From IMG/VR virus record IMGVR_UViG_3300042673_000631, positions 1 through 52,123 of that record: DNA of 52,123 nt. One strand, given 5' to 3'. A model generated the notes under the pieces. It made no database searches, was not told the DNA's origin, and saw only the letters and a list, made by a program, of their open reading frames with translations. Below, in pieces: positions 2,351 to 44,380 of this stretch (position 1 is the stretch's first letter; each line of letters opens with the position of its first letter). The position numbers were made by a program, and so were the translations under genes. This DNA comes from a virus (Duplodnaviria; Caudoviricetes).

Positions 2351-2380
2351 GTGGGGTGATGCTTCGGCTCACCCCATTTT
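2351..2380 (+). terminator. Probable intrinsic terminator of the early island
   Basis: GGGGTGA-TGC-TTCG-GC-TCACCCC stem-loop followed by ATTTT. Confidence 0.6.
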
Positions 2381-2394
2381 GCTATCCTCGCCAT

Positions 2395-3834: not shown

Positions 3835-4702
3835 AGCCTCACCTTTAACGCCAAACGAGATCGGGATGGCTGGTGCTGTCTCTCAAATTTCGTCAAGTTT
3901 GTCTCGGAGTTTGTTGGGTGTTATTGGTGGTTCGTCGGATGGTGTAACTGCTTTGGGTCGGTTGAGTTCGGTTGATATTTTGGATCAACTTCAGGACTTA
4001 ACACCAGCAATTATTGGTCCGTTGATAAACGAACTTAACTTGTCTGCCATTGATGCGATTGCTTCTATCCCGCCACAGTTAAGCATCGGAGTCAGTTTCA
4101 ATACCACTGACCCTCGCGCGCTCGCGTGGGCGACCCAGCGGGCTGGCGAGTTCGTTGTCCAAATCAGTGACGAGGTACGGTCACAGATCAGGGATCTGAT
4201 CTCTCGTGGATACCGTGACCAAATGACTGTAGATGCCATTGCAAGAGAACTACGGAACATTGTCGGGTTGCATTCTCGTTGGGCTACCGCAGTGGAAAAC
4301 ATGTATGTACGAACACTTGACGGGCTTATCAATTCTGGTGTTGCATTAGGTATGGCGACTACGCAGGCAACCAGTCTTGCGGGGGCGTACCGTGACAAGT
4401 TGATCGCTTCACGGGCTAACACGATCGCCAGAACCGAAGTCATTGGGGCTAATAACGCTGGACGCTATTTGGGGTGGCAACAGTTCATGCAACAGTCTGG
4501 TTATCCGCCGAACTTGATGCAGAAAGAATGGGTTGTTGGTCCTGACGGTTGGCAGGGGATTAATGTATGCGATCTGTGTCTTGAGTTAGATGGCACGATT
4601 GTTGGTGTGAATGATGAGTTTCCTAGTGGTCGGTTGATGCCTCCGTTGCATCCGAATTGTCGTTGTACTGCTTTGCTGATTTTTCCTGAGGATGGTTTGT
4701 GA
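3803..4702 (+). CDS. MuF / SPP1 gp7-like head morphogenesis (minor capsid) protein
   Basis: RANTIARTE and C-terminal KEW...CDLC...PPLHPNCRC; follows portal. Confidence 0.85.
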   Translation: MVRLKTTSFNKASPLTPNEIGMAGAVSQISSSLSRSLLGVIGGSSDGVTALGRLSSVDILDQLQDLTPAIIGPLINELNLSAIDAIASIPPQLSIGVSFNTTDPRALAWATQRAGEFVVQISDEVRSQIRDLISRGYRDQMTVDAIARELRNIVGLHSRWATAVENMYVRTLDGLINSGVALGMATTQATSLAGAYRDKLIASRANTIARTEVIGANNAGRYLGWQQFMQQSGYPPNLMQKEWVVGPDGWQGINVCDLCLELDGTIVGVNDEFPSGRLMPPLHPNCRCTALLIFPEDGL

Positions 4703-6408
4703 TGCCGTACAAGATTGAGCAGAGGGCTGACAAGTTTGTTGTTGTTCGTGAAGACGGCGGGAGAGTTGTTGGTACGCATTCGTCTAGGGCTAAGGCGACG
4801 GCTCATGTGCGGGCTTTGTATGCAAATGTTAAGGATGCCATTGAGAAGGCAAAGTTTGCTTCTCGTAGCGAAGCAGGCAAGTACGCCGCTCACATTCGGT
4901 GGATGCGAGAGCGGGGTATGGAACCGTTAACGCCTGATGCTTGGCGTAGCCAGAACGCTCAACCAGTTCAACCGACAAGAAGTTCTTATGAAAGTTCGTT
5001 AGATGCGATCACAAGTTTTGCTAGTGATGAGTTTCAAAGCAGATTGCGTGATGCCGGTGCTTCTATAAGGGGTAGTAGGTATGACGGTGGCAGATTGGTT
5101 CCGTTAGGAGAATATTTAAATATTCAAAACGAAATGTCTGTGGTTAGAGTTCGTAACCCAAATAATCCTGTGAATACAATAATTATTGGTTCTCCTCCTC
5201 TGATGGCGGTTGAACGAGAAGTCAATGAACTGGGCGGGTTAGTGCATAATGCGATACTAGAAAAAATGAAACAAGACGGACATATTTTGCCAAACGGTGA
5301 ATTTAATACTGCCAAACACGAAGCGTTAATGCAAGTTCGTGACGAATCGCAGGCTGTTGTTGATGAGATTAGAGCCAAAGCCAAAGAATTAGGGCTACAA
5401 CAGTTCACTGGTTATGAAAACGGTGCCCAAACTGAAGAAATGAAAATTGGGTGGCGTGGAGATCCTAAAGATATAGATACTGCGGACCTCCCTCCTCGTC
5501 TCAAAAATTTGCACGAAAAATGGGACACACTGCACCAAGAATTTTACGAAATTCCGTGGAGTGAACGAGATGCGAATGTTTCAAAAAGAGAACAGTTAGA
5601 TGCCGCTAAAGACGAATACGAGAAAGCCGCGCTCGCCGATTTTGAAACTTGGTTTAACGCTAACCACAATCCGTCAGGATCTGGAAGTCACAAAGATCAG
5701 TTTTCAAAAATAAGTAATAATCACAACAACAATATGAGAGCGGTCTGGTCTTATCCAAATTATGTGGATCGGTATGCTGAAAGTTTTAGTAAAGTCATGG
5801 AAGATCTAAATATTTCTGCCAAGTCACAAATTGGTAAATCTGACCAAATTGATTTAAGTAGAAGTAGGTTGACCAAAGCAGAAAAAGAAAAGTTTGCTAG
5901 GGACATTCACACATTTTTTCCTGCTAAAGCAATCAAAATTTTTAGTGATAGATATGGCTTACTGAAAGTAACAAAATCCAAAGGTGGTGGGCATTGGAAT
6001 GTTAGTGATGTACAAATTTTGACATCTAATTCGGAAGGTACGAACATACATGAATTTATGCATGCTTTAACTTATGCGGATCGTCGGGCTAACTTTGTGG
6101 AACAAGCATTTCTTATGCGACGGCAAACAGTTGGTGGGCGTAATAATCAGCCTATTAAAGAACGCATTGTTAATGGTTGGGAAAAACCTAAACAAACTTA
6201 TGACGGAGGAAGAGGTAGACGGTTTGACTCTCTATATATTCGTGACGAGTTTGCGGATGAATATACGGGCAGGCATTATTCGTCTGGTCATACCGAAACT
6301 ATGACAACTGGTTTGGATCGCCTGTCTGAAGGTGGCACTCATATTGAAGATCAGGATCACATGAACTCTACTTTAGGTTTGCTTGTAGCGATTGGGTTGG
6401 GACAATGA
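4699..6408 (+). CDS. Tagged head-cargo protein 1: small N-domain, SRSEAG..RW tag, C-terminal zincin metallopeptidase
   Basis: IEKAKFASRSEAGKYAAHIRW at 4843-4902; HEFMH at 6049-6063 with downstream DEYTGRHY...TETMTTG. Confidence 0.7.
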   Translation: MMPYKIEQRADKFVVVREDGGRVVGTHSSRAKATAHVRALYANVKDAIEKAKFASRSEAGKYAAHIRWMRERGMEPLTPDAWRSQNAQPVQPTRSSYESSLDAITSFASDEFQSRLRDAGASIRGSRYDGGRLVPLGEYLNIQNEMSVVRVRNPNNPVNTIIIGSPPLMAVEREVNELGGLVHNAILEKMKQDGHILPNGEFNTAKHEALMQVRDESQAVVDEIRAKAKELGLQQFTGYENGAQTEEMKIGWRGDPKDIDTADLPPRLKNLHEKWDTLHQEFYEIPWSERDANVSKREQLDAAKDEYEKAALADFETWFNANHNPSGSGSHKDQFSKISNNHNNNMRAVWSYPNYVDRYAESFSKVMEDLNISAKSQIGKSDQIDLSRSRLTKAEKEKFARDIHTFFPAKAIKIFSDRYGLLKVTKSKGGGHWNVSDVQILTSNSEGTNIHEFMHALTYADRRANFVEQAFLMRRQTVGGRNNQPIKERIVNGWEKPKQTYDGGRGRRFDSLYIRDEFADEYTGRHYSSGHTETMTTGLDRLSEGGTHIEDQDHMNSTLGLLVAIGLGQ

Positions 6409-9221
6409 TTAGGTTCGGGTATGTCCAGAATGGTGTTCAGCGGTTTGCTGAGTGGACTGAAGAGTCTGGGCTTGTATGCGAAGACGATTTGCTTGATGCC
6501 GTCAATCTTTTGATTGGGGCTAAGGCTCCTGTTAAGTGTTCTTGGGTCGGGTATTTGATGGAAGCGTCTGTTGATACTCCTGTGCAGGCGTGGGGGACTA
6601 TCAATAAGGCATTGAAGTGGTGTAATGGTGTTGAGTTGGTTCGTTGTACGCCACCGTTGATTGAGTATGACGAGTTTTCGGAACCTGAAGAGGATCTGCT
6701 TGAGAAAGCAACTTTTAGTTCACGATCTGAAGCAGGCAGATATGCCGCCCAACAGCGTTGGAAGAACCATGCGAAACAAGAAACGCTGTTAACTCCAACC
6801 GATGATGTTTCTTTGGCACAAAAAACTGGTCAACCAATTACATGGTTGCTTCCTGCTACACGGGATATGCGGTTAAAAGGTTTGTTAAGTAGTTTGGCTC
6901 CTCATTTTATTGCTACTGGTGTGTCAGTCCAAGATTTTGACTCTGTGTTGGGTGATCCAGCAATTAAACCGTTGATTAAATATTTGGAAGATAAAGGTAT
7001 TGTTGATATACCAGATTTTTATAGTTCTGAGGGTGCGACTAATGCTGAGTTGGTTGCTCACGGGTTAATTGTTTCGGCGATGCAAGACCTTGCTTTGAAG
7101 ATGAGGTCTAGCAGTTTGGATGTTGACCGAAGCAAATCGTTCAATCAGGCAATTCAGATCGCTACTGATGGTTTTCCAACAGTCAACATGGGTATTACCG
7201 CTTTTGAGATGATGATGGATGAGGGCGGTCGTTACAAGACACAGTTTGAGGCTGGTGATTCTGGTGGATATTTTAGTCCAGATTTGCGGGCGGCTTTTGA
7301 ATCTAGCGTGTTGGGTTTACATCCTGACATGGATGCGACTAAGCGTCCCGTGTATGGCACTATGCAGACCTCAACAAGTTTAAAAACAAGTGAAGATGCT
7401 CAAATGTACGGTGGCATTGTTTTGCAGTTAAAGAATAATGTTCGGGATCGGACAACTGTTGCTTACAACGATTCGTTGGGTATGGCGACAAGAACTGCTC
7501 CAGCAAACAGTGTTAAAGATGATTCTGGTGGCATGTTTCGTACTGGCATGATTACGGAACCGTTTTTTTATGTTGAGGCTCAGATTCATGGTGGTGTCAA
7601 CATGGATGATGTTGATGCTGTTTGGATTCACAATTTTACGGGTGTAGATGCTGAGGCTCCTCGTCGTGTAAGGGAAGCGTTGGATGCGAATGGGTACACG
7701 GATGTTCCTGTGTTGCGTGTGGGCGTGGACGAACCTGTGGAGAAAGCGAAGTTCAGTTCACGAAGTGAGGCAGGTAGGTATGCGGCTCACATTAGGTGGA
7801 TGAATGAGCGTGGTATGACTCCGATGACCGCCGACCAGTGGAATGCACAGAACTCTGGTGGTTCGGAGCGCATGCGAAAGATTAAAAGCATGCAAGCGGA
7901 TGTTTCTAAGCGACTTAAAAACTTGAATGATGTTTTGGTTAAGTCTGGTTTGGCATCTGAGGGAATGTGGAACCAAGGAAGATTAGATAGTAATGGTGAT
8001 TTAAAGTATGTTGTTGTTGATCCTAAAGATTGGGATAAGACCAGCGTTCCTGAGGTAAGTAAAAGTCCGATGGCGGCATGGCTTGTTGAAGTAGACATAA
8101 AAAACCCAGAGAGTCCTTTTGCAACATATCAAGTTCCTAATGCTGAGGTCATGGCTTTGATGGAGGATGTTAAAACTTTAGGTTCGTTAATTGAAGAAGA
8201 AGTTCAAGAGCGGATCAACGCACAAAATATTCGTTTGGCAACTGGAGCAGAAGCATCCCGTGACTTTACTTTAAAAATTGTTAACGCCCAGAGAGTGATA
8301 ACGCATTACGAAACAATCACTTCCAGATTTTTGAATGATTTCATCACTTTTAAAGCAGATCCGAATGACCCAACACCAAAATTTCAACAATATGTTAAGT
8401 CAGGTCAACCTAAAATGATTGGGAGCCTTGTTGATTATGCCCCAAGTTTGGGAGAATTTATTGAAAGTAATAACAGTGCTGACGAAAAAGTTTTGCTTTC
8501 TGCTTTAATAGAAAAAACGCGATCTTCTGTTCTTGAATTAAACCAATTAGGATTTGAGCAGAACACTTCGGCAAAATATCGGCGTGAAGTTTTGGCTGAA
8601 ATTCGTTCTTTCGGTGCTGACGAAGGTACTCCTTATGAAATTGTTACTGGTTTCAATTTCCCGAATGGGGCACCTGTAGAAGTCCGTATTGCTGATGCGA
8701 TGCAAAATTTACCAACGGCATGGATTGACAATTTAAAAACTTACACGCAAACAAAAACTACGCATAGAGTGTTAAGAGCAAAAACTGTTAACGAAATGCA
8801 ATCAGGGTACATTGAAGCGAATCATATAATTCAAACTTCGGCAAATGCTCAGACTGCTTTTGTTATCCACGAATTGGTTCATGCTGTTGAAGCGTCAAGC
8901 CCAGTCATGCGAGCAATGGTTCATTCTTTTGGTGTCAATAGAAGAGTCGGTAATTTTAGACCTTCAGAAGAAAAGTTTGGTAGCACTTTTGCTCAAAGGT
9001 TACAAACTGGGATTTGGGAAGAATCTGGGCGATCTGGTTTCGTTGAAGATAGTTATTTTGATAAGTATTCTGGGCGTGTGTACGGCGGGTTCGCGTATTC
9101 TGCTCACGAACAGTTGACTACGGGGACAGATTATTCGTTGTTTGTCAATACGATTCGTCCGCATGACCGTATTGACTCGGATCAGTTGACTTTTACATTA
9201 GGAATGTGGGCTTCAGCATGA
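6405..9221 (+). CDS. Tagged head-cargo polyprotein 2: partner domain, tag, DUF3626-like domain, tag, zincin metallopeptidase
   Basis: Tags at 6702-6761 and 7740-7799; YKTQFE/RPVYG/RTT..DS/YVEAQIHGGV motifs; HELVH 8868-8882. Confidence 0.7.
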   Translation: MIRFGYVQNGVQRFAEWTEESGLVCEDDLLDAVNLLIGAKAPVKCSWVGYLMEASVDTPVQAWGTINKALKWCNGVELVRCTPPLIEYDEFSEPEEDLLEKATFSSRSEAGRYAAQQRWKNHAKQETLLTPTDDVSLAQKTGQPITWLLPATRDMRLKGLLSSLAPHFIATGVSVQDFDSVLGDPAIKPLIKYLEDKGIVDIPDFYSSEGATNAELVAHGLIVSAMQDLALKMRSSSLDVDRSKSFNQAIQIATDGFPTVNMGITAFEMMMDEGGRYKTQFEAGDSGGYFSPDLRAAFESSVLGLHPDMDATKRPVYGTMQTSTSLKTSEDAQMYGGIVLQLKNNVRDRTTVAYNDSLGMATRTAPANSVKDDSGGMFRTGMITEPFFYVEAQIHGGVNMDDVDAVWIHNFTGVDAEAPRRVREALDANGYTDVPVLRVGVDEPVEKAKFSSRSEAGRYAAHIRWMNERGMTPMTADQWNAQNSGGSERMRKIKSMQADVSKRLKNLNDVLVKSGLASEGMWNQGRLDSNGDLKYVVVDPKDWDKTSVPEVSKSPMAAWLVEVDIKNPESPFATYQVPNAEVMALMEDVKTLGSLIEEEVQERINAQNIRLATGAEASRDFTLKIVNAQRVITHYETITSRFLNDFITFKADPNDPTPKFQQYVKSGQPKMIGSLVDYAPSLGEFIESNNSADEKVLLSALIEKTRSSVLELNQLGFEQNTSAKYRREVLAEIRSFGADEGTPYEIVTGFNFPNGAPVEVRIADAMQNLPTAWIDNLKTYTQTKTTHRVLRAKTVNEMQSGYIEANHIIQTSANAQTAFVIHELVHAVEASSPVMRAMVHSFGVNRRVGNFRPSEEKFGSTFAQRLQTGIWEESGRSGFVEDSYFDKYSGRVYGGFAYSAHEQLTTGTDYSLFVNTIRPHDRIDSDQLTFTLGMWASA

Positions 9222-10192
9222 AATTAGATTGGTTGACCGTTGACGGTGACAGTATTTCGTGGGATAACGGGGTGGTTGATGCCCCGCAAGAGTTTTTGGA
9301 CAATGTGGACTTTCTGGTTGATGCGAAGGTTCGTGTTCGGTCGCCTCGGTTTTATTTTGCTGAGGAGGTTGCTGGTATGGACACGATGTTGGGGGCTTTG
9401 TTGACGATTGAGTTTTTGTTGGATGTTTTGGGTGTTGGTTTGGTTGAGGCTCCGATGCCGTTTGGGGTGTCGGATGTTTTTGTGACTGATAATCACGATG
9501 TGTTTGATGGTTCGGGTGAGTTTGAGAAGGCTATGTCTCGGAGTGAAGCGGGCAGGTATGCGGCGGAACAGCGTTGGAAGAACCATGCGAAGAAGGTTGA
9601 TCCTGTTCGGGTGCTTGATCCGCAGTATCAGAAAGTTGCTGATCGGATTAACGCTGGTACAAAATCAGTAACTGATGCTGGTTTCCAAATTGAAATAATC
9701 AATTCTCCTGAAGATCGGCAACGCATATTGGAGATGCATACAAAATTTAAAGATTTTGTTGTTGAACAAAGGAATTTGTGGCGAGATACAAAAGGAAAAG
9801 AAGGTAAATATTTTTCTGATAGAACAATTTCTGGTCTTCAGTTAATGACAACTTCTATAAAAAGGGGAGCAACACGAGGGACAACAATTGTTGTTCACGA
9901 TGGATCATTAGTTGCTGGTGCCGCTCTTGCTCATATTCAGACAAACAGTATGGCTGATGGTAAACCTATGTCAATTTGGCTTATGGGGTCGGCTCATATA
10001 GTTGAAGGTGCTGGTTCTGCTATGTATGGCGCGCTTTTGAAATGGGGTCAATCTCAAGGTGTTACATCTATTGAATTAGATCCGTTACCTGATGCTAAAA
10101 CTTTTTGGCAGACAAAAATGAGAATGATTTGGACTGGTGAAGAAATGGTTTATTCTGATAGCAAAATTGGAATGATTGGGGCGTTGAAATGA
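9218..10192 (+). CDS. Tagged head-cargo protein 3: partner domain, tag, GNAT-like acetyltransferase
   Basis: FEKAMSRSEAGRYAAEQRWKNH at 9524-9586; GAGSAMYGALLKWG...AKTFW GNAT motif A/B-like; ATGA overlap start 9218. Confidence 0.65.
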   Translation: MKLDWLTVDGDSISWDNGVVDAPQEFLDNVDFLVDAKVRVRSPRFYFAEEVAGMDTMLGALLTIEFLLDVLGVGLVEAPMPFGVSDVFVTDNHDVFDGSGEFEKAMSRSEAGRYAAEQRWKNHAKKVDPVRVLDPQYQKVADRINAGTKSVTDAGFQIEIINSPEDRQRILEMHTKFKDFVVEQRNLWRDTKGKEGKYFSDRTISGLQLMTTSIKRGATRGTTIVVHDGSLVAGAALAHIQTNSMADGKPMSIWLMGSAHIVEGAGSAMYGALLKWGQSQGVTSIELDPLPDAKTFWQTKMRMIWTGEEMVYSDSKIGMIGALK

Positions 10193-11268
10193 TCGGGTCG
10201 TTGGATGATATGGATGATGCGATGCCTGATCTATTGGATTGGCTTCGTTCTAATGTTGAGTTTGAGAAAGCAAAGTTCAGTTCTCGTAGTGAGGCTGGGA
10301 AGTATGCGGCTCATATTAGGTGGATGAACCAGAGGGGTATGACTCCGTTGTCTGCTGAGGCTTGGACGGCTAGTCAGAGTGCTGATGCGACACCTGTTGT
10401 TACGGCTCCGACTGTACCGTCACGGTTTACTGCTACTGGTATGTGGTGGGATGCACAACCGCCCGCTCTTGCTTCTATGAAAGATGCGATCACATGGTTG
10501 CAGGATAAATGGGGTGGCACAACAAAAGATCAACGGCGTAGATTCAGAGTAAAACTGAATGCTATGGGAAGTAACCCCAAAACGGATCATTTGGCTCAAG
10601 CGTATGCCATTGCAATGGATAACTTGTTTAAATTTGCACCTATCGTGGCGGAAACTATTGAAGAAGTAGTTTGGGATGAAAATCAAATACGGAATTCGTG
10701 GGGTCAGGCTAGTCGTGATGGTCACAGTCTAAATTTCATTGCAAGCACTTTTGTACAAACTTTGATACAGCCAGATGGAACAGTTATCCCTTCGGAGCAA
10801 TATGCGTTGTTTGCAAAAGAACAAGCATTTTCAACGGGGTTCAAATCTTCAAGGTCGCTGAGTAGCACTTTTTATCACGAGTTTGGGCACCACATTGGGT
10901 TTGCCGCTGGTAATAAAGCGTTGTACGGCGATGTTAAAGAAGTTAGACCATCCTTGTATGCGGATTCAGATGATCGTAAAAAGTACAATCGTGAACTTGC
11001 CAAATTGATTAGCCCGATTCTTAAAGAGCATTACGGAGATGAAAGTCGTGCAAGAATTGAACTTGATGATAAAGCGCAATATAAAATACGGGGAAAAATA
11101 GAAGAAGACATATCCAAATATGCTTTGACTAACTACGACGAATTGGTTGCGGAATCAGCGGCACAGTATTTTGCCGCCAAATTTGAACCTGACCAACCGC
11201 CAGCGTCACCGTTAGCAATCAAAATTGTTGAGACATTATTGAATTACATAGAAGGAGAGAACAAATGA
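10189..11268 (+). CDS. Tagged head-cargo protein 4: tag, zincin metallopeptidase
   Basis: FEKAKFSSRSEAGKYAAHIRW at 10264-10323; HEFGH 10876-10890 and ISKYALTNYDELVAE third-ligand motif. Confidence 0.7.
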   Translation: MIGSLDDMDDAMPDLLDWLRSNVEFEKAKFSSRSEAGKYAAHIRWMNQRGMTPLSAEAWTASQSADATPVVTAPTVPSRFTATGMWWDAQPPALASMKDAITWLQDKWGGTTKDQRRRFRVKLNAMGSNPKTDHLAQAYAIAMDNLFKFAPIVAETIEEVVWDENQIRNSWGQASRDGHSLNFIASTFVQTLIQPDGTVIPSEQYALFAKEQAFSTGFKSSRSLSSTFYHEFGHHIGFAAGNKALYGDVKEVRPSLYADSDDRKKYNRELAKLISPILKEHYGDESRARIELDDKAQYKIRGKIEEDISKYALTNYDELVAESAAQYFAAKFEPDQPPASPLAIKIVETLLNYIEGENK

Positions 11269-11501
11269 CTGAGGGTTTAACGATCTGTTGGGCTTGTAAG
11301 CACTTGCGAGCAGATTCAGCCGTTGTTGACGGTTGGATGGTTTCCACATGCGACGCTTTCCCTGACGGTATTCCGATCAAGATCTTTATTGATGGGTTTG
11401 ACCATCGGAAAGAATTTGGTGGCGATAACGGGGTACGCTTTGAACCGATAACGGTTGATATGGGCGTTGAGGCTCTAAAAATAGTTGAGGAGTTGTCGTG
11501 A
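11265..11501 (+). CDS. Small Cys/His protein (CxxCxH...CxAFPxGIP...H), candidate partner of upstream peptidase
   Basis: CWACKH...CDAFPDGIP...FDHRKEFGGDNGVRFEP; translationally coupled. Confidence 0.7.
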   Translation: MTEGLTICWACKHLRADSAVVDGWMVSTCDAFPDGIPIKIFIDGFDHRKEFGGDNGVRFEPITVDMGVEALKIVEELS

Positions 11502-11680
11502 TTTTGATTGCAATGGTTGATAATGCGAAGGTGTTTGACATTGAAGACGATGATCCGATGTTCGGCAAGCGTGTTGTTCTGGAGCGTGGCGGTGTTCAGA
11601 GTGCCCCGATCTTGTTGGAGAATGTGGTTACGAAAATGTCTATGAGCAAGTGGGAATGGATCAACCCCCCTACTAAATAA
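11498..11680 (+). CDS. Small hypothetical protein
   Basis: GAGGAG RBS, GTGA overlap. Confidence 0.6.
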   Translation: MILIAMVDNAKVFDIEDDDPMFGKRVVLERGGVQSAPILLENVVTKMSMSKWEWINPPTK

Positions 11681-11710
11681 TGCTTATCGGGTTTACTGTA
11701 AGGTGACCGC

Positions 11711-13720
11711 ATGCATACACACGAAATAGACCAGTGGATTAACGGCGATCTGGCGTGGGAAGATTTGTCTGTTGAAGCGCAACGAAGTGTTGATGCTGAT
11801 GCGATGAAGGCTGAACCTGTCGCCGAAATGGAACTGGTTCACAAGTCGGTTGCTGAGAAGCGATTCACTTTGGGTCCGTGGTATATCCCTAATCGGTTGG
11901 ATGCTCATAATGAGTGGACGGACGCTGACGAGTTGCAGGCTGGTTTGTGGGATTATGTTCGTAAGGGTGATCGTGGTATCCGTTTACAGCACAATCGTGA
12001 CATTGTGGCTGGTGAATGGGTTGAGGCTATGCAACTGCCTGTACCGATGCGAATGCAGAAAGCGGCTGACGGCGGGGATGTTGAATATCCTGAGGGGACA
12101 GTGTTTTTGGGTGTTGTTTGGAAGCAGTGGGCGTGGGATCTGGTGAAGAACGGCAAAATTAAAGGTTTTTCTATTGGTGGTTCGTCGGCTCGTCTGCCAA
12201 TTGAGCCTGTTTCTAAGGCTGTCGGGTTCAAACCGATGTTTATTCCTGCGTTGATTCGGGTTTCAGGTAAGTCTTTTGCTGTCCGTCCAGATGGTGGAGG
12301 GGTTCGGGTTTCGTCGGGTTCTGATGCTGTTGTGTTTGATCCGTATCGGGCTGATGTGGTTGCTAAGTCTGTTTCTGGAGCGCAGTTTGCTGATGCGAAG
12401 ACGATGGTGGCGATTTCTAAAGCGATCTTGACTGGCAATGTTGATGCTGGAATGTGGGCTGATACTGGGGTTTCGTGGGTTTTTGTTAAGGCTAAGTTCA
12501 GTTCTCGTTCTGAGGCGGCTCGTTACGCCGCTCATATTCGTTGGGCTACTGAACGAGGTGAAACCCCGATGGGTGCGGGCGAGTTTTCGGAACAAATTAA
12601 GTCGTCTGCGGATTATGCGATGATGAATTTGAAGAAAAATCGTGATGCTTTGGCTTCCAAGATGGAGTTTCCGCATAACGATCTTCCTGTTGGTCCGTTG
12701 GGTTTGCCAACTTCTCCTGCTGGTAAGTCTTTGTTTAACACTTCTCCGTCGCTTGGCGGGCATGTTGATTTTGACGCTATGGGCAAGTACATGATGGATC
12801 GTTTAGATCAACCGAACATGGGTTTTGGTAAGGCGGGGTTGCCTACAGAAGCACCGTATGATGTTCTTCGTCGTTTTATGACTCCTGAACGGCGGGCTTT
12901 GCACGATGCGATCGTTGACGCTCATTTGGCTGGCAAAACGGCTAGAGATGATACCCCCGAATACACTTGGCTTGGTGGTGGTGGTGCTTCTGGTAAAACC
13001 AGCATTTTGGAATCTGGTGCCGCTAGTGTTCCGACCCGTGTTTTGAAGAATGGTTCGGCTGTACCAAGTGGTGATATGCACTCTGTTGAGATCAATGCTG
13101 ACGAAATCAAAGATTTGTTACCAGAGTTTTTGGCGTTGACAAAGGGTGGGGAAAAAAGGGTTTATGTCACTGCTGACGGTAGAGAAAAGCCTTATGAATT
13201 GGGTCGTTCAACTGAGCGGGCACGATTTGTTGCGGCTGGTTTTACTCACGAAGAGTCGTCTATCCTTGCGAAGCGTATTAACTCCGAGGCTATGTACAGA
13301 GGTTTGGACATTGTGATGGATGGTACTGCTGACGGCAAACCGGGGGCACAAGCGAAGAAGGTTGCTGTGGCTCAAGCAAACGGCTATAAAACTCGTTTGA
13401 TTATGGTGACTATCCCTACCGAAGTGGCTATTGTTCGTTCTAATGAGCGAGGTATTACTTCGGGGCGTAAGGTTCCTGAGTTCGCTTTGCGTGACGCTCA
13501 TGTTGGGGCTTCGGCAAGATTTTTGGAAACGGCACCGCTGTATGACTCTTTTGAGGCTTATGATAACTCAGGGCGACCGCCACAAAAATTTGTAAGTAAG
13601 AGTACCAAGGGTGGTCGGGTTACTATTCAAAATAAAGCCCTGTATGATGCTTTCTTAGCGAAGGCTGGCGAAAGTTTGGGCGAGTCAACAGCAAGGGATG
13701 AACCGTGGACATTAGCGTAA
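11711..13720 (+). CDS. XkdF-like (S78-type) prohead protease fused via tag to zeta-toxin-like P-loop kinase
   Basis: N-term GPWYIPNRLDAHNE...LQHN...GT..W..VKNGKIKGFSIGG; tag 12485-12544; GGGGASGKT 12974-13000, INADEIK, HEESS, VMDGT, GRKVP, YDNSG. Confidence 0.8.
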   Translation: MHTHEIDQWINGDLAWEDLSVEAQRSVDADAMKAEPVAEMELVHKSVAEKRFTLGPWYIPNRLDAHNEWTDADELQAGLWDYVRKGDRGIRLQHNRDIVAGEWVEAMQLPVPMRMQKAADGGDVEYPEGTVFLGVVWKQWAWDLVKNGKIKGFSIGGSSARLPIEPVSKAVGFKPMFIPALIRVSGKSFAVRPDGGGVRVSSGSDAVVFDPYRADVVAKSVSGAQFADAKTMVAISKAILTGNVDAGMWADTGVSWVFVKAKFSSRSEAARYAAHIRWATERGETPMGAGEFSEQIKSSADYAMMNLKKNRDALASKMEFPHNDLPVGPLGLPTSPAGKSLFNTSPSLGGHVDFDAMGKYMMDRLDQPNMGFGKAGLPTEAPYDVLRRFMTPERRALHDAIVDAHLAGKTARDDTPEYTWLGGGGASGKTSILESGAASVPTRVLKNGSAVPSGDMHSVEINADEIKDLLPEFLALTKGGEKRVYVTADGREKPYELGRSTERARFVAAGFTHEESSILAKRINSEAMYRGLDIVMDGTADGKPGAQAKKVAVAQANGYKTRLIMVTIPTEVAIVRSNERGITSGRKVPEFALRDAHVGASARFLETAPLYDSFEAYDNSGRPPQKFVSKSTKGGRVTIQNKALYDAFLAKAGESLGESTARDEPWTLA

Positions 13721-13986
13721 ACCGTATTAGCCGTTTGATGCAGGCTATTGTTTTGGGCGAGGACGCTGAGGCGTTATGCGAATCGCCTGAGGAGTTGCAG
13801 ATTCTTCCGCAGTTGCGTGAGGAGTGCCAGTTTGAAGATGGAATGATTTTGGATTTCCAGAATGATTCTGTGGATGCGAATGCTTGGGATTGTGCTGGGT
13901 TTGATCGTGATGCTTGGGAAGCGGCGGGGATGCCTGACGATGCTTGGGCGTTTGTGAAGCCGTATGTATCAGAGGCTTGGGCTTGA
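13705..13986 (+). CDS. Highly acidic small protein, candidate antitoxin of the zeta-like domain
   Basis: Overlaps end of kinase gene; very D/E-rich. Confidence 0.55.
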   Translation: MDISVNRISRLMQAIVLGEDAEALCESPEELQILPQLREECQFEDGMILDFQNDSVDANAWDCAGFDRDAWEAAGMPDDAWAFVKPYVSEAWA

Positions 13987-14011
13987 CACGGGTTTAGTGT
14001 TTTGGTACCCT
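13983..14011 (+). promoter_or_regulatory. Repeated phage promoter copy 3
   Basis: TTGACACGGGTTTAGTGTTTTGGTACCCT, 17-nt spacer. Confidence 0.75.
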
Positions 14012-14029
14012 TTGAATGAAGGAGGGTAA

Positions 14030-14413
14030 ATGAAACCAATTGCTGTATACGGAACCCTGATAAAAGGATTCCACAACTCACGGCTGTGGGATGGGCTTGC
14101 TACCTACGAGGAGTGCATCATCCACGATTTCCGTCTTGTCACTCACGGGTGGTACCCGTATGCGATACCAGACGAGGGATCAATAACAGTCGGTCAAATT
14201 ATTACGCCGACAAGTGAAGTTAACGCTTCAACGATCTTGTCTCGGCTTGATTATTTAGAAGGTGTTCCCGATCATTACAGTCGTGAATCTGCAACTGTTG
14301 AACTTGAGAATGGTGCGATTGTTACTGCATGGATTTATGTTCCTGTGAGTGATGAATCAAGTTTGGATCCTGTGCCAGAAAACGACTGGCGACTTTACGC
14401 AAGTCTTGTTTAG
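14030..14413 (+). CDS. Gamma-glutamylcyclotransferase (AIG2/GGCT-like)
   Basis: IAVYGTLIKGFHN, YPYA, LDYLEG..HYSR, AWIYV; GGAGGG RBS. Confidence 0.85.
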   Translation: MKPIAVYGTLIKGFHNSRLWDGLATYEECIIHDFRLVTHGWYPYAIPDEGSITVGQIITPTSEVNASTILSRLDYLEGVPDHYSRESATVELENGAIVTAWIYVPVSDESSLDPVPENDWRLYASLV

Positions 14414-14450
14414 TTGATGTAGTTCAGGGTTATCAGTACCGTTCTCTGCG

Positions 14451-15149
14451 ATGGCTTCGCGGAAAATGGTAAACATGAACATTGAAGAGACTTCTGGTGT
14501 TGACCATCCCGCGCACATGGACGAAGGATGGATCCTTATGAAGAACTCTGGTTTAAACACCGAAGATTTTGAAACGATTGAAAAAATGGTCGCTTTGGAA
14601 TCAGAACTTGCTGACGCTCAGGCTCGCCTTGCCTCTTTAGAAACTGAAGAGACAACCGAAGAGACAACCGAAGACATGGACTACATGGACGACGATGCGA
14701 TGATGAAGTCGGCTCCGCCTGCTGTTCGTGAAGCATTGTTGAAGGCTCGTAACGAGGCTTTTGTTGCTCAGGAAGAACTACGCAAAGAGCGTGAAGTCCG
14801 TCTTGACGCTCACGCAATTGCTAAGAGCATGGACGATTATGGCAATCTTGCTATTGACCACGAAGAATTTGGTCCTGCCCTTCGCCGTTTGGAAGAACTT
14901 GACGCAACAGTCGTTGAGATCATCGCTAAGGCTTTGCAGTCCGCTAACGCTCAGGCTGAATCAGCCAACATTTTTGCCGAAATCGGCTCTTCATACATGC
15001 CAAATACTGCTGGCAGTTTCCAGAAGATTGAATCGCTCGCTAAGTCCGCTGTGACCAAGGGCGAATATAAGACCGTTGAGCAAGCAATCGCTGGCTTGAT
15101 TGAAACCAACCCATCGTTGTACGCAGAGTACATCGCTGAAACCCGCTGA
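14451..15149 (+). CDS. Capsid scaffolding protein
   Basis: IEETSGVDHPA N-terminus, coiled-coil, acidic, C-terminal NPSLYAEY; upstream of capsid genes. Confidence 0.7.
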   Translation: MASRKMVNMNIEETSGVDHPAHMDEGWILMKNSGLNTEDFETIEKMVALESELADAQARLASLETEETTEETTEDMDYMDDDAMMKSAPPAVREALLKARNEAFVAQEELRKEREVRLDAHAIAKSMDDYGNLAIDHEEFGPALRRLEELDATVVEIIAKALQSANAQAESANIFAEIGSSYMPNTAGSFQKIESLAKSAVTKGEYKTVEQAIAGLIETNPSLYAEYIAETR

Positions 15150-15167: not shown

Positions 15168-15563
15168 ATGGCATACGAAATTTCCAATTACAGCGTCAAA
15201 ATCACCCTTGTCGCCGCCGCTGACCTTAGTGCGAAGCAGTATTACTTCGTCAAGATCAACACTTCGGGTCAAGCCGCGCTTTGTGCGGCGGCTACTGACA
15301 AGCCGATTGGCGTTCTTCAGAACAGCCCAACCGCTGGTCAAGAAGCCCAAGTTCTAGTTATTGGTGGAACTAAGGTCGTTTGTTCCGCAAGCCTAGACGA
15401 AGGTGTTGCTATCGGCACGACTTCGGCTGGTAAGGCTGGAGCAAAGGTTGTCGGAACTGACACCACTAACTACATCGTCGGTCAAATCATCCTTGCGGGT
15501 GGAGCCGACTTGGATATTGCAACCGCTGTTATTAACTGTGCATCGCCTGCCCGCGCCGCCTGA
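15168..15563 (+). CDS. Capsid decoration/cement protein (DUF2190-like)
   Basis: AAADLS...IGVLQN.P.AG...GKA pattern; between scaffold and MCP. Confidence 0.7.
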   Translation: MAYEISNYSVKITLVAAADLSAKQYYFVKINTSGQAALCAAATDKPIGVLQNSPTAGQEAQVLVIGGTKVVCSASLDEGVAIGTTSAGKAGAKVVGTDTTNYIVGQIILAGGADLDIATAVINCASPARAA

Positions 15564-15580
15564 GTCAAAAGGAATAAATC

Positions 15581-16531
15581 ATGCCCCAGCCCACACAAAA
15601 TCAGGTACATGTTGATGCGATTCTGACGAACATCAGTGTCGCTTACATGCAAAAAGCCGAAAACTTCATTGCAAACAAGATCTTCCCGATCGTTCCTGTT
15701 GAGAAGCAGTCGGACAAGTTCTTCAAGTACACCAAGAACGACTGGTTCCGTGACGAAGCACAGCGACGCGCTGATGCGACGGAATCTGCTGGTGGCGGTT
15801 ACAACTTGTCAACCGATTCGTACAACGCTGAAGTGTGGGCTTTCCACAAGGATGTTGGCGATCAGACTCGTGCAAATGCTGATGCTCCTATCAATGTGGA
15901 TCGTGAAGCGGTTGAGTTCATTACGAGCCGTTTGTTGCTCAAGATGGAAACTGAATTCGTTTCAAGTTATTTCACGAGTGGCATTTGGGCTACTGACAAC
16001 ACTCCGTCAAACTTGTGGTCGGATTACACCAACAGTGACCCGTTGAACGATGTTGAAGATGCGAAGCGAGCAATCCTTTCCACTACTGGTTTTGAACCGA
16101 ACACGCTTGTGCTTGGTTACGATGTTTTCAAGGAATTGAAGAATCACCCAGATCTCGTTGACCGTATCAAGTACACCTCGTCTTCGGTTATCACGACTGA
16201 CATGATCGCTCGTATGTTTGATGTTGATCGTGTTGTGGTTTCAAAGGCTGTCAAGGCAACCAACAATGAAGGTGCCACTGGTGCTTATGACTTCACTGCT
16301 GGTAAGAATGCGCTCTTGTGCTATTCGGCTCCGTCACCGGGTCTTCTCCAGCCGTCTGCTGGTTACATCATGTCTTGGACTGGTGTTTCTGGTGGTCTTG
16401 GTCAGACGATCGGTTCAAGCCGTTTCCGTATGGAATCAGTGAAGGCTGACCGTATTGAAGCAGAAATGGCTTTTGACATGAAGGTCGTTGCCGCTGACCT
16501 CGGTTACTTCTTCGCCAGCGTGGTTTCGTGA
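15581..16531 (+). CDS. Major capsid protein (HK97 fold)
   Basis: HVDAILTNISVAY...FIANKIFPIVPV...PNTLVLG...GYFFASVV; AAGGA RBS. Confidence 0.85.
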   Translation: MPQPTQNQVHVDAILTNISVAYMQKAENFIANKIFPIVPVEKQSDKFFKYTKNDWFRDEAQRRADATESAGGGYNLSTDSYNAEVWAFHKDVGDQTRANADAPINVDREAVEFITSRLLLKMETEFVSSYFTSGIWATDNTPSNLWSDYTNSDPLNDVEDAKRAILSTTGFEPNTLVLGYDVFKELKNHPDLVDRIKYTSSSVITTDMIARMFDVDRVVVSKAVKATNNEGATGAYDFTAGKNALLCYSAPSPGLLQPSAGYIMSWTGVSGGLGQTIGSSRFRMESVKADRIEAEMAFDMKVVAADLGYFFASVVS

Positions 16532-30478: not shown

Positions 30479-30664
30479 GTGCGACGACCGTTCCAGATAG
30501 CCGATCAAATTGGTAAGGGTTTGGTGCTTGGTCTTGTCGCGTCTTGGCTGAGGGATTTTCCTGAGTTGATGATGTGTGTAGTTCCTCTTTTGGCGGGTCT
30601 ATTTGCGTGGTTGTCAACTCTTGTAGGGGATCGTTCCGTCGCTTCGTTTCTGTCTGACGACTGA
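30479..30664 (+). CDS. Small membrane protein (holin-like)
   Basis: Two hydrophobic segments; TATAGT 6 nt before GTG. Confidence 0.55.
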   Translation: MRRPFQIADQIGKGLVLGLVASWLRDFPELMMCVVPLLAGLFAWLSTLVGDRSVASFLSDD

Positions 30665-34868: not shown

Positions 34869-36488
34869 GTGGATTTTGACCTGACTGAGTTAGAGAAAAA
34901 GATGTCTCCTTCGGAGGCTGGTCGTTACGCCGCTGAGATGCGATGGCGTACTCATTCTGGTGCGCCTCGGATGGCTGGGGATAACACGATTTCGTTGCCT
35001 GATCGGTTGAATCGGGCTACTGACAACATGTTGGCTAAGGGTGGCAGTGTTTCTCATTTGGGTGTTGATGAGAGTGACGCTGTTTTGCGTGGTGCGATGA
35101 TGATGGTGGAGCGCACTTTTAGTGAGGCTCGTATGAATCAGCGGGATTACGAGTTGAATGTGCATGCTCAGAAGTCGTGGAATGAGGCTCGTAAGGATCC
35201 TTCGGCGATGCTTCATGTGGTGCGTGTTGGTCGGAATATTGCGGCGGTTGCGGTTACGGTTCGTCCGAATGATGCGACGGTGGAGATTCGGCATTTGAGT
35301 TCTACTGGGGTGTTGAAGGGTGCTGGTTCGGCTTTGTTGGGGTCAATCATTAAGAAGGGTGTGAAGGGTGGGCGTACTACTTTTCGGGTTACGCCGTCTG
35401 AGGAATCTAAGTCTTTTTGGGATGAGTACGGTTTTAGTGGTGCTGTTTATGACCAGTTGGGTAATCCTGATGGGTCGCAGGATTTGGTTGTGAAGCCTGA
35501 GTGGTTGCGTGTTCTTAAGGCTATGTCAAGGTCTGAGGCGGGGAAGGTAGCGGCTCAGGCACGATGGAAGAACCATGTAAAAACAACTGATGCGACACCT
35601 GTTGCTCCGCCTGTTCAGCCGTCTACCCCTAAAAAAATTGCTACTAAGCAGGGCATCGGTCGTGCGTTGAATGATGCGGGGATTAAGAAAACTGGGTATA
35701 TTTATTCGTCCAGAATTCGTGGTTACGCTACACCGACTTCGGGTTGGGAATCTGTGGAAACTGAGAACGGTTTTAAAGTTACTTTCAAGATGGTTAGTGG
35801 TGGAGTGCGAGCGCATTATTCCCAATCTCAAGAAGTGAAAGATCGTATATCGGCTGTTAATCAAGAATATATTGATGGTCAACTGAAAAGAATGCATGAT
35901 GCTCTTAAGGCAAAAGGGTATGACACTTCGTTTGATGGTGAAACAATTTTCGTTAATAACACGAGTCCAGTTTTGGGAGTTTCTTCAAGATCTTCTAGTC
36001 CCGCCAAAATGAGGCAAATAGAGTCAGTGACAACACGGTTTACCGAAATGTCCAACAGTGTAGCCAAGGCTTTTTCTGAAGAATATATGAAAAAGGCGGG
36101 TCTAAAATTAACCGAACAAGGTTACGGTCAAAAAGAGGCTACAGAGGCTGAGTTAAAACTTGGAAAAGAAAAGAAAGACTTCCTCATAAAAATTTTGGAT
36201 GAGCAAGGCAAGAAGGCTCAAGGTGCGATAGAAAATCTTGCTCAAGGATTTATGCCTTTATCGCAAAAAGATATCTTGCAAGGTGTCCGCTCATTTTTAA
36301 AAAGCAAAGAAAAAGAAACTGTTCGGGAAATGCAAAGCAAAGGTTTAGGGTCTTCTAAAAAAGAAGATACTACCGTTGGTTCTATGGTTTATTCAACTAC
36401 GCGAGCGGTTTTAGAAAATGCACGACTGTTTATTGATTTAGCAATAGAACGAGCCACGCCTCTAGTAGAAAAACAACCGAAAGGGTAG
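34869..36488 (+). CDS. Tagged cargo polyprotein 6: tag, GNAT, tag, unknown domains
   Basis: LEKKMSPSEAGRYAAEMRW 34893-34946; GAGSALLGSII...SKSFWDEYGF; VLKAMSRSEAGKVAAQARWKNH 35514-35576. Confidence 0.65.
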   Translation: MDFDLTELEKKMSPSEAGRYAAEMRWRTHSGAPRMAGDNTISLPDRLNRATDNMLAKGGSVSHLGVDESDAVLRGAMMMVERTFSEARMNQRDYELNVHAQKSWNEARKDPSAMLHVVRVGRNIAAVAVTVRPNDATVEIRHLSSTGVLKGAGSALLGSIIKKGVKGGRTTFRVTPSEESKSFWDEYGFSGAVYDQLGNPDGSQDLVVKPEWLRVLKAMSRSEAGKVAAQARWKNHVKTTDATPVAPPVQPSTPKKIATKQGIGRALNDAGIKKTGYIYSSRIRGYATPTSGWESVETENGFKVTFKMVSGGVRAHYSQSQEVKDRISAVNQEYIDGQLKRMHDALKAKGYDTSFDGETIFVNNTSPVLGVSSRSSSPAKMRQIESVTTRFTEMSNSVAKAFSEEYMKKAGLKLTEQGYGQKEATEAELKLGKEKKDFLIKILDEQGKKAQGAIENLAQGFMPLSQKDILQGVRSFLKSKEKETVREMQSKGLGSSKKEDTTVGSMVYSTTRAVLENARLFIDLAIERATPLVEKQPKG

Positions 36489-36490
36489 TT

Positions 36491-37555
36491 ATGAATAAGT
36501 CATTGGAAACTGTGTTGAAGGCTTTGGAGCAGGACGCTTTGGCGTTTTGTTCGGAGTCGGATTGGGCGATCGTTGTTGCTGAATGCGAGAGGGCTGGGAA
36601 TGTTCGTCGTATTTCTAAGTCGGCTCAGGTGATTTTGCAGAAGGCTATGTCTCGTTCGGAGGCTGGTCGGTTTGCGGCTGAACAACGGTGGAAGAATCAT
36701 CAGAAGCGGACTGCAACATATTCTGGTGTTGAACGAAACACTACTGATGAAAGTCGTAAGTGGAAATTTAGTACCGATAAACCGAGCCATTTGGATGAGG
36801 CTTCAAATAATGCTCGTTTGGAATCGTGGACTTCCGACAGTGAAGTTCCAGATCCTTCTGGTGATGGTTATTGGACTAAAGGTGATTGGAATTCAGATGA
36901 TCCTGATTACGGTCGTCGTTATTCTGATTACGACGAACTTAGTGGTCCTGAATCAAATGATGCTGGGATTGATTATCAACTAAGCGCACAGGCTAGAGAT
37001 GCTGGTATCAGTTTCGGTCCTAGGCGGAACCCTTTTCAAGATATGGAGCCTTTTTCTGATGAAGTTTTTAATGACATTAAAAGTGGTAAAACAACACCAA
37101 TCGCCACAGGTTTTGATGAAGTAAGAAAAGGTATTGACGAGGCTTTTGCAAAAATTCTTGAAGCAGAATCTGATCCGATTAAAGTAAAGAGTGCCATGAA
37201 AGTTAAAAGGAGACTTTTAACAAATATGGCTCAGCAAGGCAAGTTGGCTCAAGAGGCTCTTGAAGAATTGGTTTCAGCAAGTGATCCTAGACAGGCAATG
37301 AAAGAATTGAAAGCCGCAGGAGCGCACCTAAGTATTGAGGCTCGTCAAGCAAGGCTAAAGCAATTTGAGCGATATGAAAAGCCAGAAGCAAGCGTTACCA
37401 TTCGGGCGGCACTTAACCTTGAAAACGCAATAGTGGAAAAACTTTATGGCATTATTAGCGAACAGGCTTATGGTGTTGGCAAAAGGCTTGGAACTTTTAG
37501 GGGCGGTAATGGTCATTTTGATGTGGGCGGTGTCATAAATCCTGACGGGTACTGA
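36491..37555 (+). CDS. Tagged cargo protein 7: N-domain, tag, acidic region, helical domain
   Basis: ILQKAMSRSEAGRFAAEQRWKNH 36638-36700. Confidence 0.65.
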   Translation: MNKSLETVLKALEQDALAFCSESDWAIVVAECERAGNVRRISKSAQVILQKAMSRSEAGRFAAEQRWKNHQKRTATYSGVERNTTDESRKWKFSTDKPSHLDEASNNARLESWTSDSEVPDPSGDGYWTKGDWNSDDPDYGRRYSDYDELSGPESNDAGIDYQLSAQARDAGISFGPRRNPFQDMEPFSDEVFNDIKSGKTTPIATGFDEVRKGIDEAFAKILEAESDPIKVKSAMKVKRRLLTNMAQQGKLAQEALEELVSASDPRQAMKELKAAGAHLSIEARQARLKQFERYEKPEASVTIRAALNLENAIVEKLYGIISEQAYGVGKRLGTFRGGNGHFDVGGVINPDGY

Positions 37556-43387: not shown

Positions 43388-43419
43388 GACTTGATCGGGG
43401 TTTAGTTTTGTGGAAGAAT
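43388..43419 (+). promoter_or_regulatory. Repeated phage promoter copy 6
   Basis: GACTTGATCGGGGTTTAGTTTTGTGGAAGAAT. Confidence 0.7.
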
Positions 43420-43460
43420 ACTTATGGAGGGAGAGAGGCTCCCACCAGAGAGGGGAAAAG

Positions 43461-44363: not shown

Positions 44364-44380
44364 CAGGAAGGACACAGAAC

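Follow-up and report, generated by a model that had tools for sequence, protein, structure and literature searches.

Hydrophobic-x-Lys-small motifs as probable prohead-protease sites in the scaffold-like protein, protease and tagged cargo proteins of an uncultured actinobacterial phage

The window analysed here is the whole of the IMG/VR virus record IMGVR_UViG_3300042673_000631 (52,123 bases, estimated to be ~98% complete), in which seven proteins, most of them encoded among the head genes, carry copies of a short peptide, referred to below as the tag. Every copy is preceded by a hydrophobic residue, any residue, a lysine and, with a single exception, an alanine, and similar four-residue strings recur in a protein with an XkdF-type protease domain (11711-13720) and in a scaffold-like protein (14451-15149). 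The question raised by this locus is whether these strings are simply the beginning of the tag or a site at which the proteins are cut. The answer that we reach is that hydrophobic-x-Lys-small is probably the site of a Lys-specific XkdF-type prohead protease, which would dismantle the scaffold, free the protease and split the cargo polyproteins.

The tag core, S-x-S-E-A-[AG]-[RK]-x-A-A-x-x-R-W, was found nine times in a six-frame pattern search, always on the plus strand (core starts at nt 4861, 6720, 7758, 9536, 10282, 12503, 34905, 35526 and 36650), and a profile search of the whole 52,123-base record returned the same nine places. The nine copies are spread over seven proteins, two of which carry two each. 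Five of the seven proteins are encoded between the gene for a MuF-like head protein and the gene for the scaffold-like protein, and two (34869-37555) after the lysis genes. The tetrapeptides before the tags are IEKA, LEKA, VEKA, FEKA, FEKA, FVKA, LEKK, VLKA and LQKA, the residue after the lysine being Ala in 8/9 and Lys in 1/9, and two spacings are present, namely K-A plus three residues and then the core, and K-A-M directly followed by the core. A first-pass annotation had described a hydrophobic-x-K-[A/S] site before each tag, and such a site is indeed present at all nine, eight with Ala and one with Lys; the interval to which it assigned them, 4840..15149, holds six of the nine, the other three lying outside it at 34890-36646. 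The sites are the following, together with the one in the protease gene (FVKA, given further below):
4840..4851, plus strand: site I-E-K-A before tag 1; the cargo protein, 4699-6408, starts with a 47-residue leader and has an H-E-x-x-H string in the part C-terminal to the tag
6699..6710, plus strand: site L-E-K-A before the first tag of 6405-9221 (938 residues, two tags), with a DUF3626 module next (E 2.8e-9)
7737..7748, plus strand: internal site V-E-K-A, which precedes the second tag and separates the DUF3626 module of 6405-9221 from its C-terminal H-E-x-x-H module
9521..9532, plus strand: site F-E-K-A ahead of the tag of 9206-10192, a short-type tag standing between an N-domain and a GNAT-like module
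10261..10272, plus strand: site F-E-K-A ahead of the tag of 10189-11268, a protein with a leader of 27 residues and an H-E-x-x-H module
34890..34901, plus strand: site L-E-K-K, outside the head module, preceding the first of the two tags of 34869-36488 (leader of 11 residues)
35511..35522, plus strand: internal site V-L-K-A before the second tag of 34869-36488
36635..36646, plus strand: site L-Q-K-A before the tag of 36491-37555 (51-residue leader)

The internal tags of 6405-9221 and 34869-36488 had been read in the first pass as polyprotein junctions, and this reading is supported, as the internal tags fall between effector modules. Protein 6405-9221 combines DUF3626 with an H-E-x-x-H part, and protein 11711-13720 combines the protease with a Zeta_toxin domain, i.e. 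at least two effector domains per polypeptide in a head-gene context. In an AF2 model of the 9206-10192 protein (12 sequences, pLDDT 64), the F-E-K-A site is part of a coil modelled with low confidence (residues 76-111), where it would be accessible; the tag helix (112-128) comes directly after it, followed by a GNAT-like domain modelled with confidence. H-E-x-x-H strings are seen in the translations of three cargo proteins of the record; no Pfam or NCBIfam peptidase family matched these parts, and a search of eight proteins against NCBIfam found no family. The 47-residue leader of the first cargo protein (4699-4839) matches PHROG 3684 (E 2e-5), and, by eye, the N-terminally extended protease proteins of three related loci (L026, L028 and L031) seem to have a similar short stretch in their extensions; some of the leaders may therefore be small domains and not spacers.

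The frequency of the motif was compared among the protein classes of the record, with the motif written as [ILVFM]-x-K-[AS] and the expectation taken from 1000 composition-preserving shuffles. The scaffold-like protein contains 5 copies for 0.64 expected (reached in 1/1000 shuffles), the protease-zeta protein 9 for 2.02 (0/1000) and the six tagged cargo proteins 19 for 8.37 (1/1000). The portal, MuF, small head and capsid proteins together contain 4 (2.60 expected), the 17 connector and tail proteins 11 (9.96 expected) and the 46 other proteins of the record 11 (12.09 expected). All the sites that the first pass had listed in the protease and the scaffold are present, and the protease has three more:
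11711-13720, plus strand: motif sites of the protease protein, VHKS 11837, MQKA 12053, VSKA 12209, VAKS 12359, ISKA 12413, FVKA 12482 (tag junction), FGKA 12824, VSKS 13592 and LAKA 13655
11711-13720, plus strand: layout of the same protein, XkdF-type domain (~nt 11828-12190), linker region of ~90 residues, tag, Zeta-toxin-like kinase
14451-15149, plus strand: motif sites of the scaffold-like protein, MMKS 14700, LLKA 14736, IAKS 14817, IAKA 14922 and LAKS 15036

Related loci were collected with the capsid protein as query, which gave 80 IMG/VR loci with 41-100% capsid identity. Among 18 non-redundant scaffold-like sequences, the motif was observed 123 times for 16.9 expected (~7-fold), and the controls scored on the same sequences behaved differently: the reversed motif was observed 23 times (17.4 expected), the motif with Arg in place of Lys 0 times (10.8 expected) and the motif with Glu in place of Lys 19 times (32.7 expected). 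In the 154 K-[AS] dipeptides of this family, the residue two positions before the lysine (P3, if the lysine is P1) is L, V, I or M in 78%, no other position comes near, and the residue after the lysine (P1') is Ser in 29%. The site columns are conserved in the alignment, with some gain and loss, and cuts computed at all sites would leave fragments with a median of 30 residues. The same holds for seven newly fetched scaffolds (56 observed, 7.4 expected) and for the Arthrobacter phages Kovu (7 observed, 0.99 expected) and Laroye (8 observed, 1.2 expected), in the first 22 kb of which no tag was seen. In distant relatives (43-52% capsid identity), the open reading frame 5' of the capsid gene has up to 14 sites for 1.73 expected, Lys is the most enriched P1 residue in 12/13, and the open reading frame preceding the scaffold-like one matches Peptidase_S78_2 in the six distant loci scanned, three strongly and three weakly. 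The expectation of the first-pass annotation that the motif is more frequent in head than in non-head proteins is borne out: the scaffold-like and protease proteins are strongly enriched, in the record and across families in related phages, and tail and non-structural proteins are not, but the portal (15 observed, 16.8 expected in its family) and the small head protein (1 observed, 2.0 expected) stay at background and the capsid is probably uncut, which limits any head-wide claim.

Cleavage of the capsid protein at the M-Q-K-A string near its N-terminus was considered as a further candidate and rejected, as many relatives have K-Q, R-Q, D-x etc. at this place and conservation of the N-terminus sets in with its very first residues.

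A tag profile was then built from the core only, without the motif columns, so that the motif could be scored independently. In the related loci it found 25 tags outside the record (L003, L004, L006-L009 and L025), 22 with the strict motif and three in which the lysine is followed by K or G. A core-only profile of the same kind, run on 1.84 billion representative proteins, retrieved 293 clusters at E <= 0.001, many of them with 2-4 tags per protein; 152 of these clusters were fetched, giving 249 unique tags with sufficient upstream sequence. The strict motif precedes 181 of them (73%) and a relaxed motif, [ILVFMA]-x-K-[ASGVKT] within 11 residues upstream of the core, 237 (95%), against 2.0% and 7.4%, respectively, of 4980 control windows from the same proteins. 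A further independent set of 102 unique tags comprised 82 with the strict motif, 15 with the relaxed motif and five with none. The P3 residues before the tags are mainly L (83), V (48), M (47), I (32) and F (24), and the P1' residues in the 237 tags are mainly A (181), G (41) and V (10); the A/S rule of the first pass is therefore right in that Ala dominates and too narrow in that G and V occur in tags, and H in the second tag described below. The gap between lysine and core varies from 2 to 7 residues, the tag running on after the lysine with a semi-conserved x-F-[SAG].

No tag stands at a C-terminus: a leader of 49 residues (median) precedes the first tag, and a median of 271 residues separates a tag core from the protein end. 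The leaders upstream of the motif are unrelated in sequence and variable in length. The modules found in tag proteins include DUF3626, ADP-ribosyltransferases, DRAT, GNAT, HNH and a zincin, and the tag-bearing multi-module proteins are, on account of these modules, polyvalent proteins in the sense of Iyer et al. Indeed, among 25 multi-tag relatives, DUF3626 was found in ten, ADPrib_exo_Tox in three, DRAT in one, GNAT-type acetyltransferase families in three and no family in seven; one relative has a Peptidase_M90 match. Of 31 tag-bearing loci (L083-L113), 15 have head genes, all from the same XkdF, scaffold and capsid families; in the stretches fetched for the other 16, no XkdF, scaffold or capsid gene was present, no scan for other proteases having been made. 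No isolate carrying the tag was found when a 50-residue tag stretch was compared by tblastn with 50,697 GenBank phage records (nothing at E <= 1), and a word-indexed protein search with the tag region returned four proteins only. Two of the related loci (L003 and L004) encode a capsid protein 100% identical to that of the record, yet their tagged cargo set and its arrangement differ, from which, as judged by these comparisons, the cargo turns over much faster than the shell.

Furthermore, a sister clade with ~80% capsid identity (L012-L020 and L048, e.g. L019:2020-5189 and L048:3-5785) is without the first tag and has a different, His/Gly-rich junction peptide, in two variants (K-H-L-x-G-K-H-D-Q-x-x-H-G-x-G-G and K-H-P-G-H-x-[DN]-Q-x-x-H-G-G). 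Hydrophobic-x-K stands directly before 18/19 unique copies of this second tag, which was not found in the 152 first-tag proteins. Two unrelated peptides thus follow the same motif in phages that share a protease family, which argues that the motif is an element of its own, independent of the tag. The GNAT-like cargo of the record and a second-tag cargo protein of the sister clade share weak homology (36% identity over 53 residues, E 5e-6), by which 'same cargo, different tag' is only suggested.

The candidate enzyme is encoded in the same module. The protein 11711-13720 matches Pfam PF14550, Peptidase_S78_2, over residues 40-160 (36.8 bits for a cut-off of 24; up to 67 bits in relatives), and its C-terminal part matches Zeta_toxin (E 4.2e-16). 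The XkdF domain was modelled with AF2 (13 sequences, pLDDT 62) and compared with 48,161 chains by VIA-align: the top match is the T4 prohead protease gp21 (5jbl_A, Z 7.2, root-mean-square deviation 3.0, 108/142 residues), followed by the varicella-zoster virus protease (Z 5.0), and unrelated chains score at most 4.2. H36, H64 and S124 of the aligned stretch, the last in G-[FY]-S-I-G-G, are invariant in 13 aligned XkdF domains and are candidates for the catalytic residues. The protease gene lies between portal/MuF and scaffold-like/capsid genes (portal 2356, MuF 3803, cargo, protease 11711, scaffold-like 14451, capsid 15581), and the same order is found in relatives. The protease proteins contain 60 motif copies for 14.8 expected. 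Of 22 unique ones, 21 have a site between positions -9 and +6 relative to the mapped XkdF domain start, whatever is fused upstream, i.e. nothing, a domain of ~225 residues, a domain annotated 'RNA ligase' (Kovu and Laroye) or extensions of 400-550 residues.

The protease gene also appears as a fusion hot spot. In the record, L008 and L025, a Zeta-toxin-like kinase follows the tag; in L003 (L003:7499-8395), L004 and L005, nothing follows, all that is left of the tag in L003 and L004 being a decayed remnant (11.4 bits). Other relatives have large passengers fused on the N-terminal side, among them the 'RNA ligase' domain of Kovu and Laroye.

In the proposed mechanism, the cut would probably fall after the lysine, the small residue that follows being mostly Ala and also Ser or Gly. 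Inside the procapsid, the scaffold-like protein would be chopped at 5 to 13 sites into pieces of ~30 residues able to exit the shell, and the protease would free itself from the passenger domains on either side. The cargo polyproteins would be cut at every module junction, with removal of the variable leader or preceding module, and each effector (ADP-ribosyltransferase-like, GNAT-like, zincin-like or zeta-kinase) would be released with the helical tag of ~20-35 residues as its new N-terminus. This is in essence what the first pass had supposed when it made the XkdF-like protease cut the polyproteins so that the effectors start with the tag, and the supposition gains support from the motif statistics, the variable gap between lysine and core, the scaffolds of tagless phages and the second tag. 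Since the gap ranges from 2 to 7 residues, the motif is present in the scaffolds of tagless relatives and a second tag has the same motif in front of it, the site appears to be a discrete junction site and not the mere start of a tag. The motif has a recurrent position, a specificity for Lys and for orientation, a family-wide enrichment, a placement at domain junctions and an independence from the tag; from these we infer cleavage by the XkdF protease at the K-A bond, together with packaging of the cargo.

Several observations weigh against this interpretation. The XkdF model is of low confidence, with a pLDDT of 62 and a Z below 8; Foldseek of the model against the PDB returned nothing at E <= 0.001, searches of the PDB by sequence and by profile found no solved relative of the domain, and the putative catalytic residues were assigned by invariance alone. 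The name of scaffold for 14451-15149 is an inference from gene position (just 5' of the capsid gene) and composition; its PHROG family (13547) has no function, PHROGs gives the name 'head scaffolding protein' to the adjacent 131-residue protein, and no named cluster at 0.9 or above came from the ESM Atlas. As all the sequences compared are related, z-scores are inflated and it is the same-sequence controls that carry the argument. The capsid protein keeps a conserved V-[SA]-K-[AS] in its fold and, in many relatives, the M-Q-K-A near its N-terminus; these copies are probably uncut, as judged from the alignments, and the motif would therefore be insufficient for cleavage. The relaxed motif is missing before 12/249 tags, several of which still have hydrophobic-x-K, and the P1' residue differs by substrate class, Ser being found in 29% of the scaffold sites and in 1/237 tags, Gly and Val in tags and His in the second tag. 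Three tags lie at 34.9-36.7 kb, past the lysis genes, where packaging is not evident; a promoter and terminator scan of 29-39 kb gave fewer matches than in shuffles. A literature search retrieved no biochemical or proteomic observation of cleavage for this phage group, and the passages on Laroye, the capsid maturation protease and the scaffold in the paper on Arthrobacter phages, which covers the cluster AL relatives, mention no virion proteomics (PMC5513430).

A different explanation is that hydrophobic-x-K-A forms the initial turn of the tag or caps it, or that it is a short motif by which the proteins dock to the inside of the capsid or to some other partner, and that it is never cut, the copies in the scaffold-like and protease proteins serving as multivalent docking points. 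The site always abuts the tag, so that the tags alone fit 'first residues of the tag' equally; the tag continues after the lysine with x-F-[SAG], multivalent short motifs are plausible for scaffolds that hold a shell, and no cleavage product has been seen. On the other hand, the spacing between lysine and core is variable, two unrelated tags share the motif, and the motif stands at the domain junctions of tagless protease fusions. The leaders, unrelated and of variable length (median 49 residues before the core), fit discarded propeptides, and the rule of Lys but not Arg, together with a P3-x-P1 layout, resembles the way in which relatives of this protease fold read their substrates. Such docking or capping without cleavage is thus unlikely. 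That the enrichment is a functionless by-product of helical or coiled-coil sequence (hydrophobic a, Ala d) in Lys/Ala/Leu-rich proteins was rejected and has hardly any probability left: the scaffold-like protein is rich in Ala, Glu, Lys and Leu and a mild i+/-3/4 hydrophobic periodicity surrounds the sites, but the reversed motif is not enriched, Arg never replaces Lys, there is no heptad signal at +7 (0.21 for a background of 0.24), Ser is frequent at the would-be core position, and the sites before the tags and the protease domain lie in non-helical linkers.

The junctions could also be cut by another enzyme, either the zincin-like (H-E-x-x-H) domains of the cargo itself or a host protease. 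Iyer et al. (2017) predict that metallopeptidase domains process polyvalent proteins (PMC5512222), and H-E-x-x-H strings occur in the three cargo proteins mentioned above. However, 4/7 tagged proteins of the record have the same site without an H-E-x-x-H module, no peptidase family of Pfam or NCBIfam matches the H-E-x-x-H parts, the strongest enrichment of the motif is that in the scaffold-like protein, a classical substrate of a prohead protease, and it is found at the edge of the XkdF domain in relatives where no tag was found. Cutting by such an enzyme is accordingly quite improbable, and the Lys-specific XkdF-type protease is retained as the preferred candidate.

This candidate can be set beside the prohead proteases already described. 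HK97 gp4 (Pfam Peptidase_S78), a member of a related protease family, removes the scaffold-like delta domain from the capsid protein and also degrades itself; its maturation cut falls after a lysine with Ser next, a point for which the literature search gave no confirmation. HK97 differs in having no separate scaffold and no cargo, and XkdF is a different Pfam family. The statement of the first pass that some head proteases cut after Lys has no confirmation in the literature searched, where no precedent was found either for a head protease with Lys specificity or for a specificity of XkdF. In T4, the motif of gp21 is I/L-x-E, with the cut after Glu (PMC12991175), the scaffold core is degraded, packaged anti-host proteins are trimmed and a short peptide directs proteins into the head (PMC9024508). 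The likeness to gp21 would reside in the fold class, gp21 being the best structural match of the XkdF model, and in a P3-x-P1 motif with a hydrophobic P3; the differences are that P1 is Glu in T4 and Lys here, that the cargo here consists of multi-module polyproteins with repeated tags and that the protease here is fused to passengers. The T4 targeting sequence lies before the cut, whereas the conserved peptide here would lie after the predicted cut and would thus be kept on the mature protein.

In the giant phages, SPN3US gp245 recognises A-x-E at P3-P1 with a preference for Ser at P1', 13/14 mapped sites remove N-terminal propeptides of 20-254 residues, the propeptides hold several copies of the motif and are cut at them, and abundant ejected proteins are substrates (PMC10052503). 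The P3-x-P1 layout of these proteases (SPN3US gp245 and its homologues in PhiKZ and 201phi2-1) is that of the motif described here, but P1 is chemically different, a repeated tag behind the site is not mentioned in the passages available, and the sites were mapped there by mass spectrometry, whereas they come here from sequence statistics alone. By analogy, Lys at P1, a hydrophobic P3 and a small P1' would follow the same grammar as gp21 and gp245 with the opposite charge. As for the cargo, polyvalent proteins are multi-effector proteins encoded beside portal and MuF genes and delivered with the DNA, and their domains include ADP-ribosyltransferases, zincin peptidases and a zeta-toxin-like kinase (Iyer, Burroughs, Anand, de Souza and Aravind 2017; PMC5512222). 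The domain kinds found here are the same. Processing is attributed there to their own metallopeptidase domains, and the part of that text available describes no junction tag or head-protease site, 'head protease' occurring 0 times (PMC5512222), whereas a shared motif for a protease acting in trans and interchangeable junction tags are proposed here. In P1, a 30-residue N-terminal peptide of DarB suffices to load this large anti-restriction protein, as well as a reporter, into the head (PMC9024508), but there is no consensus peptide among the P1 Dar proteins, whereas here a single peptide recurs on hundreds of different modules, in combination with a protease motif.

A physical link between the protease and the scaffold-like protein is supported by co-folding of the XkdF domain (11801-12226) with residues 1-105 of the scaffold-like protein, which gave an ipSAE of 0.80 (three runs 0.81, 0.80 and 0.75) against 0.01 for the best of three controls; the same mark is reached by 116/157 solved complexes and 2/215 mismatched pairs. 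The runs agree in at least 91% of the contacts, and the pLDDT of the partner is at least 63. Contacts to the protease come only from scaffold-like residues 1-31 (14451-14543), the most conserved part of the family, which ends in I-L-M-K at the invariant Lys31, and the predicted interface touches the stretches with the invariant His36, His64 and Ser124. In all of 28 unique relatives, the 31-residue segment is encoded by the scaffold-like gene, at its start, and in none by the protease open reading frame. Short XkdF proteins end ~12 residues past Ser124 and the XkdF model is uncertain beyond that point, so that the docking may be predicted because the scaffold N-terminus completes the protease fold, and also because of a likeness to solved prohead proteases; the protease fold may be split over two genes, or the segment may be a recruitment handle. 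The docking prediction says nothing on cleavage.

A broader picture is offered more tentatively, and as a whole it is possible but doubtful: uncultured, probably freshwater, actinobacterial phages would have modular cargo, in which polyproteins of anti-host enzymes are cut in the procapsid, at hydrophobic-x-K junctions, by a Lys-specific XkdF protease, at least two interchangeable neo-N-terminal tags govern retention in or ejection from the head, and the protease is recruited or completed by residues 1-31 of the scaffold-like protein as a split protease.

Processing of internal and ejected proteins by prohead proteases is already known, as are the polyvalent proteins. Not found in print are the Lys specificity predicted here for XkdF proteases, an uncharacterised family, the use of polyprotein junctions by a head protease in place of self-processing, two interchangeable junction tags reused over at least 293 protein clusters, and the apparent split of the protease with the scaffold N-terminus. 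In the literature found, XkdF (Peptidase_S78_2) proteases are without a mapped specificity, and the prediction made here (P3 hydrophobic, P1 Lys, P1' small) is testable in cultured Arthrobacter phages. A shared head-protease site could explain how polyvalent cargo is split into working units, where self-processing had been proposed. If loading or delivery is controlled by the short peptides reused on hundreds of effector modules, these could serve as handles for packing chosen proteins into heads, like the T4 and P1 peptides. As a cut after lysine mimics a tryptic cut, such a maturation could be missed entirely by standard virion proteomics.

The record is that of a phage of an actinobacterium, as it contains two WhiB genes and its nearest cultured relatives are Arthrobacter phages of cluster AL (Laroye, Salgado and Kovu) and one Microbacterium phage. 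All its plausible genes are on the plus strand, and the portal and MuF genes beside the cargo genes place the latter in the head module, which is organised as follows:
2356-3834, plus strand: portal (Portal_Mu, profile match E 1e-30)
3803-4702, plus strand: MuF-like head protein (profile match E 8.7e-13), directly 5' of the cargo genes
4699-11268, plus strand: four cargo genes, encoding tagged proteins
between the cargo genes and the protease fusion, plus strand: two small genes
11711-13720, plus strand: protease fusion (XkdF-type domain, tag, Zeta-toxin-like kinase)
after the protease fusion, plus strand: a small gene and then, inside the head module, a GGACT enzyme (gamma-glutamyl cyclotransferase, 14030-14413)
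14451-15149, plus strand: scaffold-like protein, 232 residues, acidic
15168..16531, plus strand: small head protein (131 residues) and lambda-E-like major capsid protein (capsid gene 15581-16531)

No large terminase gene was recognised in the record; the small terminase gene (51600-52079) is the last gene, only small open reading frames lie 5' of the portal gene, and the large subunit probably lies at the break of the linear record. A 398-residue protein without a family match (30664-31860), hydrophobic at its N-terminus and basic at its C-terminal end, with a long low-complexity stretch rich in Thr, Ser and Glu in between, is encoded between a tail fibre gene and a VanY-type endolysin gene. 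In the early region (43410-45142), an amidoligase gene adjoins a class-II glutamine amidotransferase gene, and both are metabolic-looking, like the GGACT gene of the head module.

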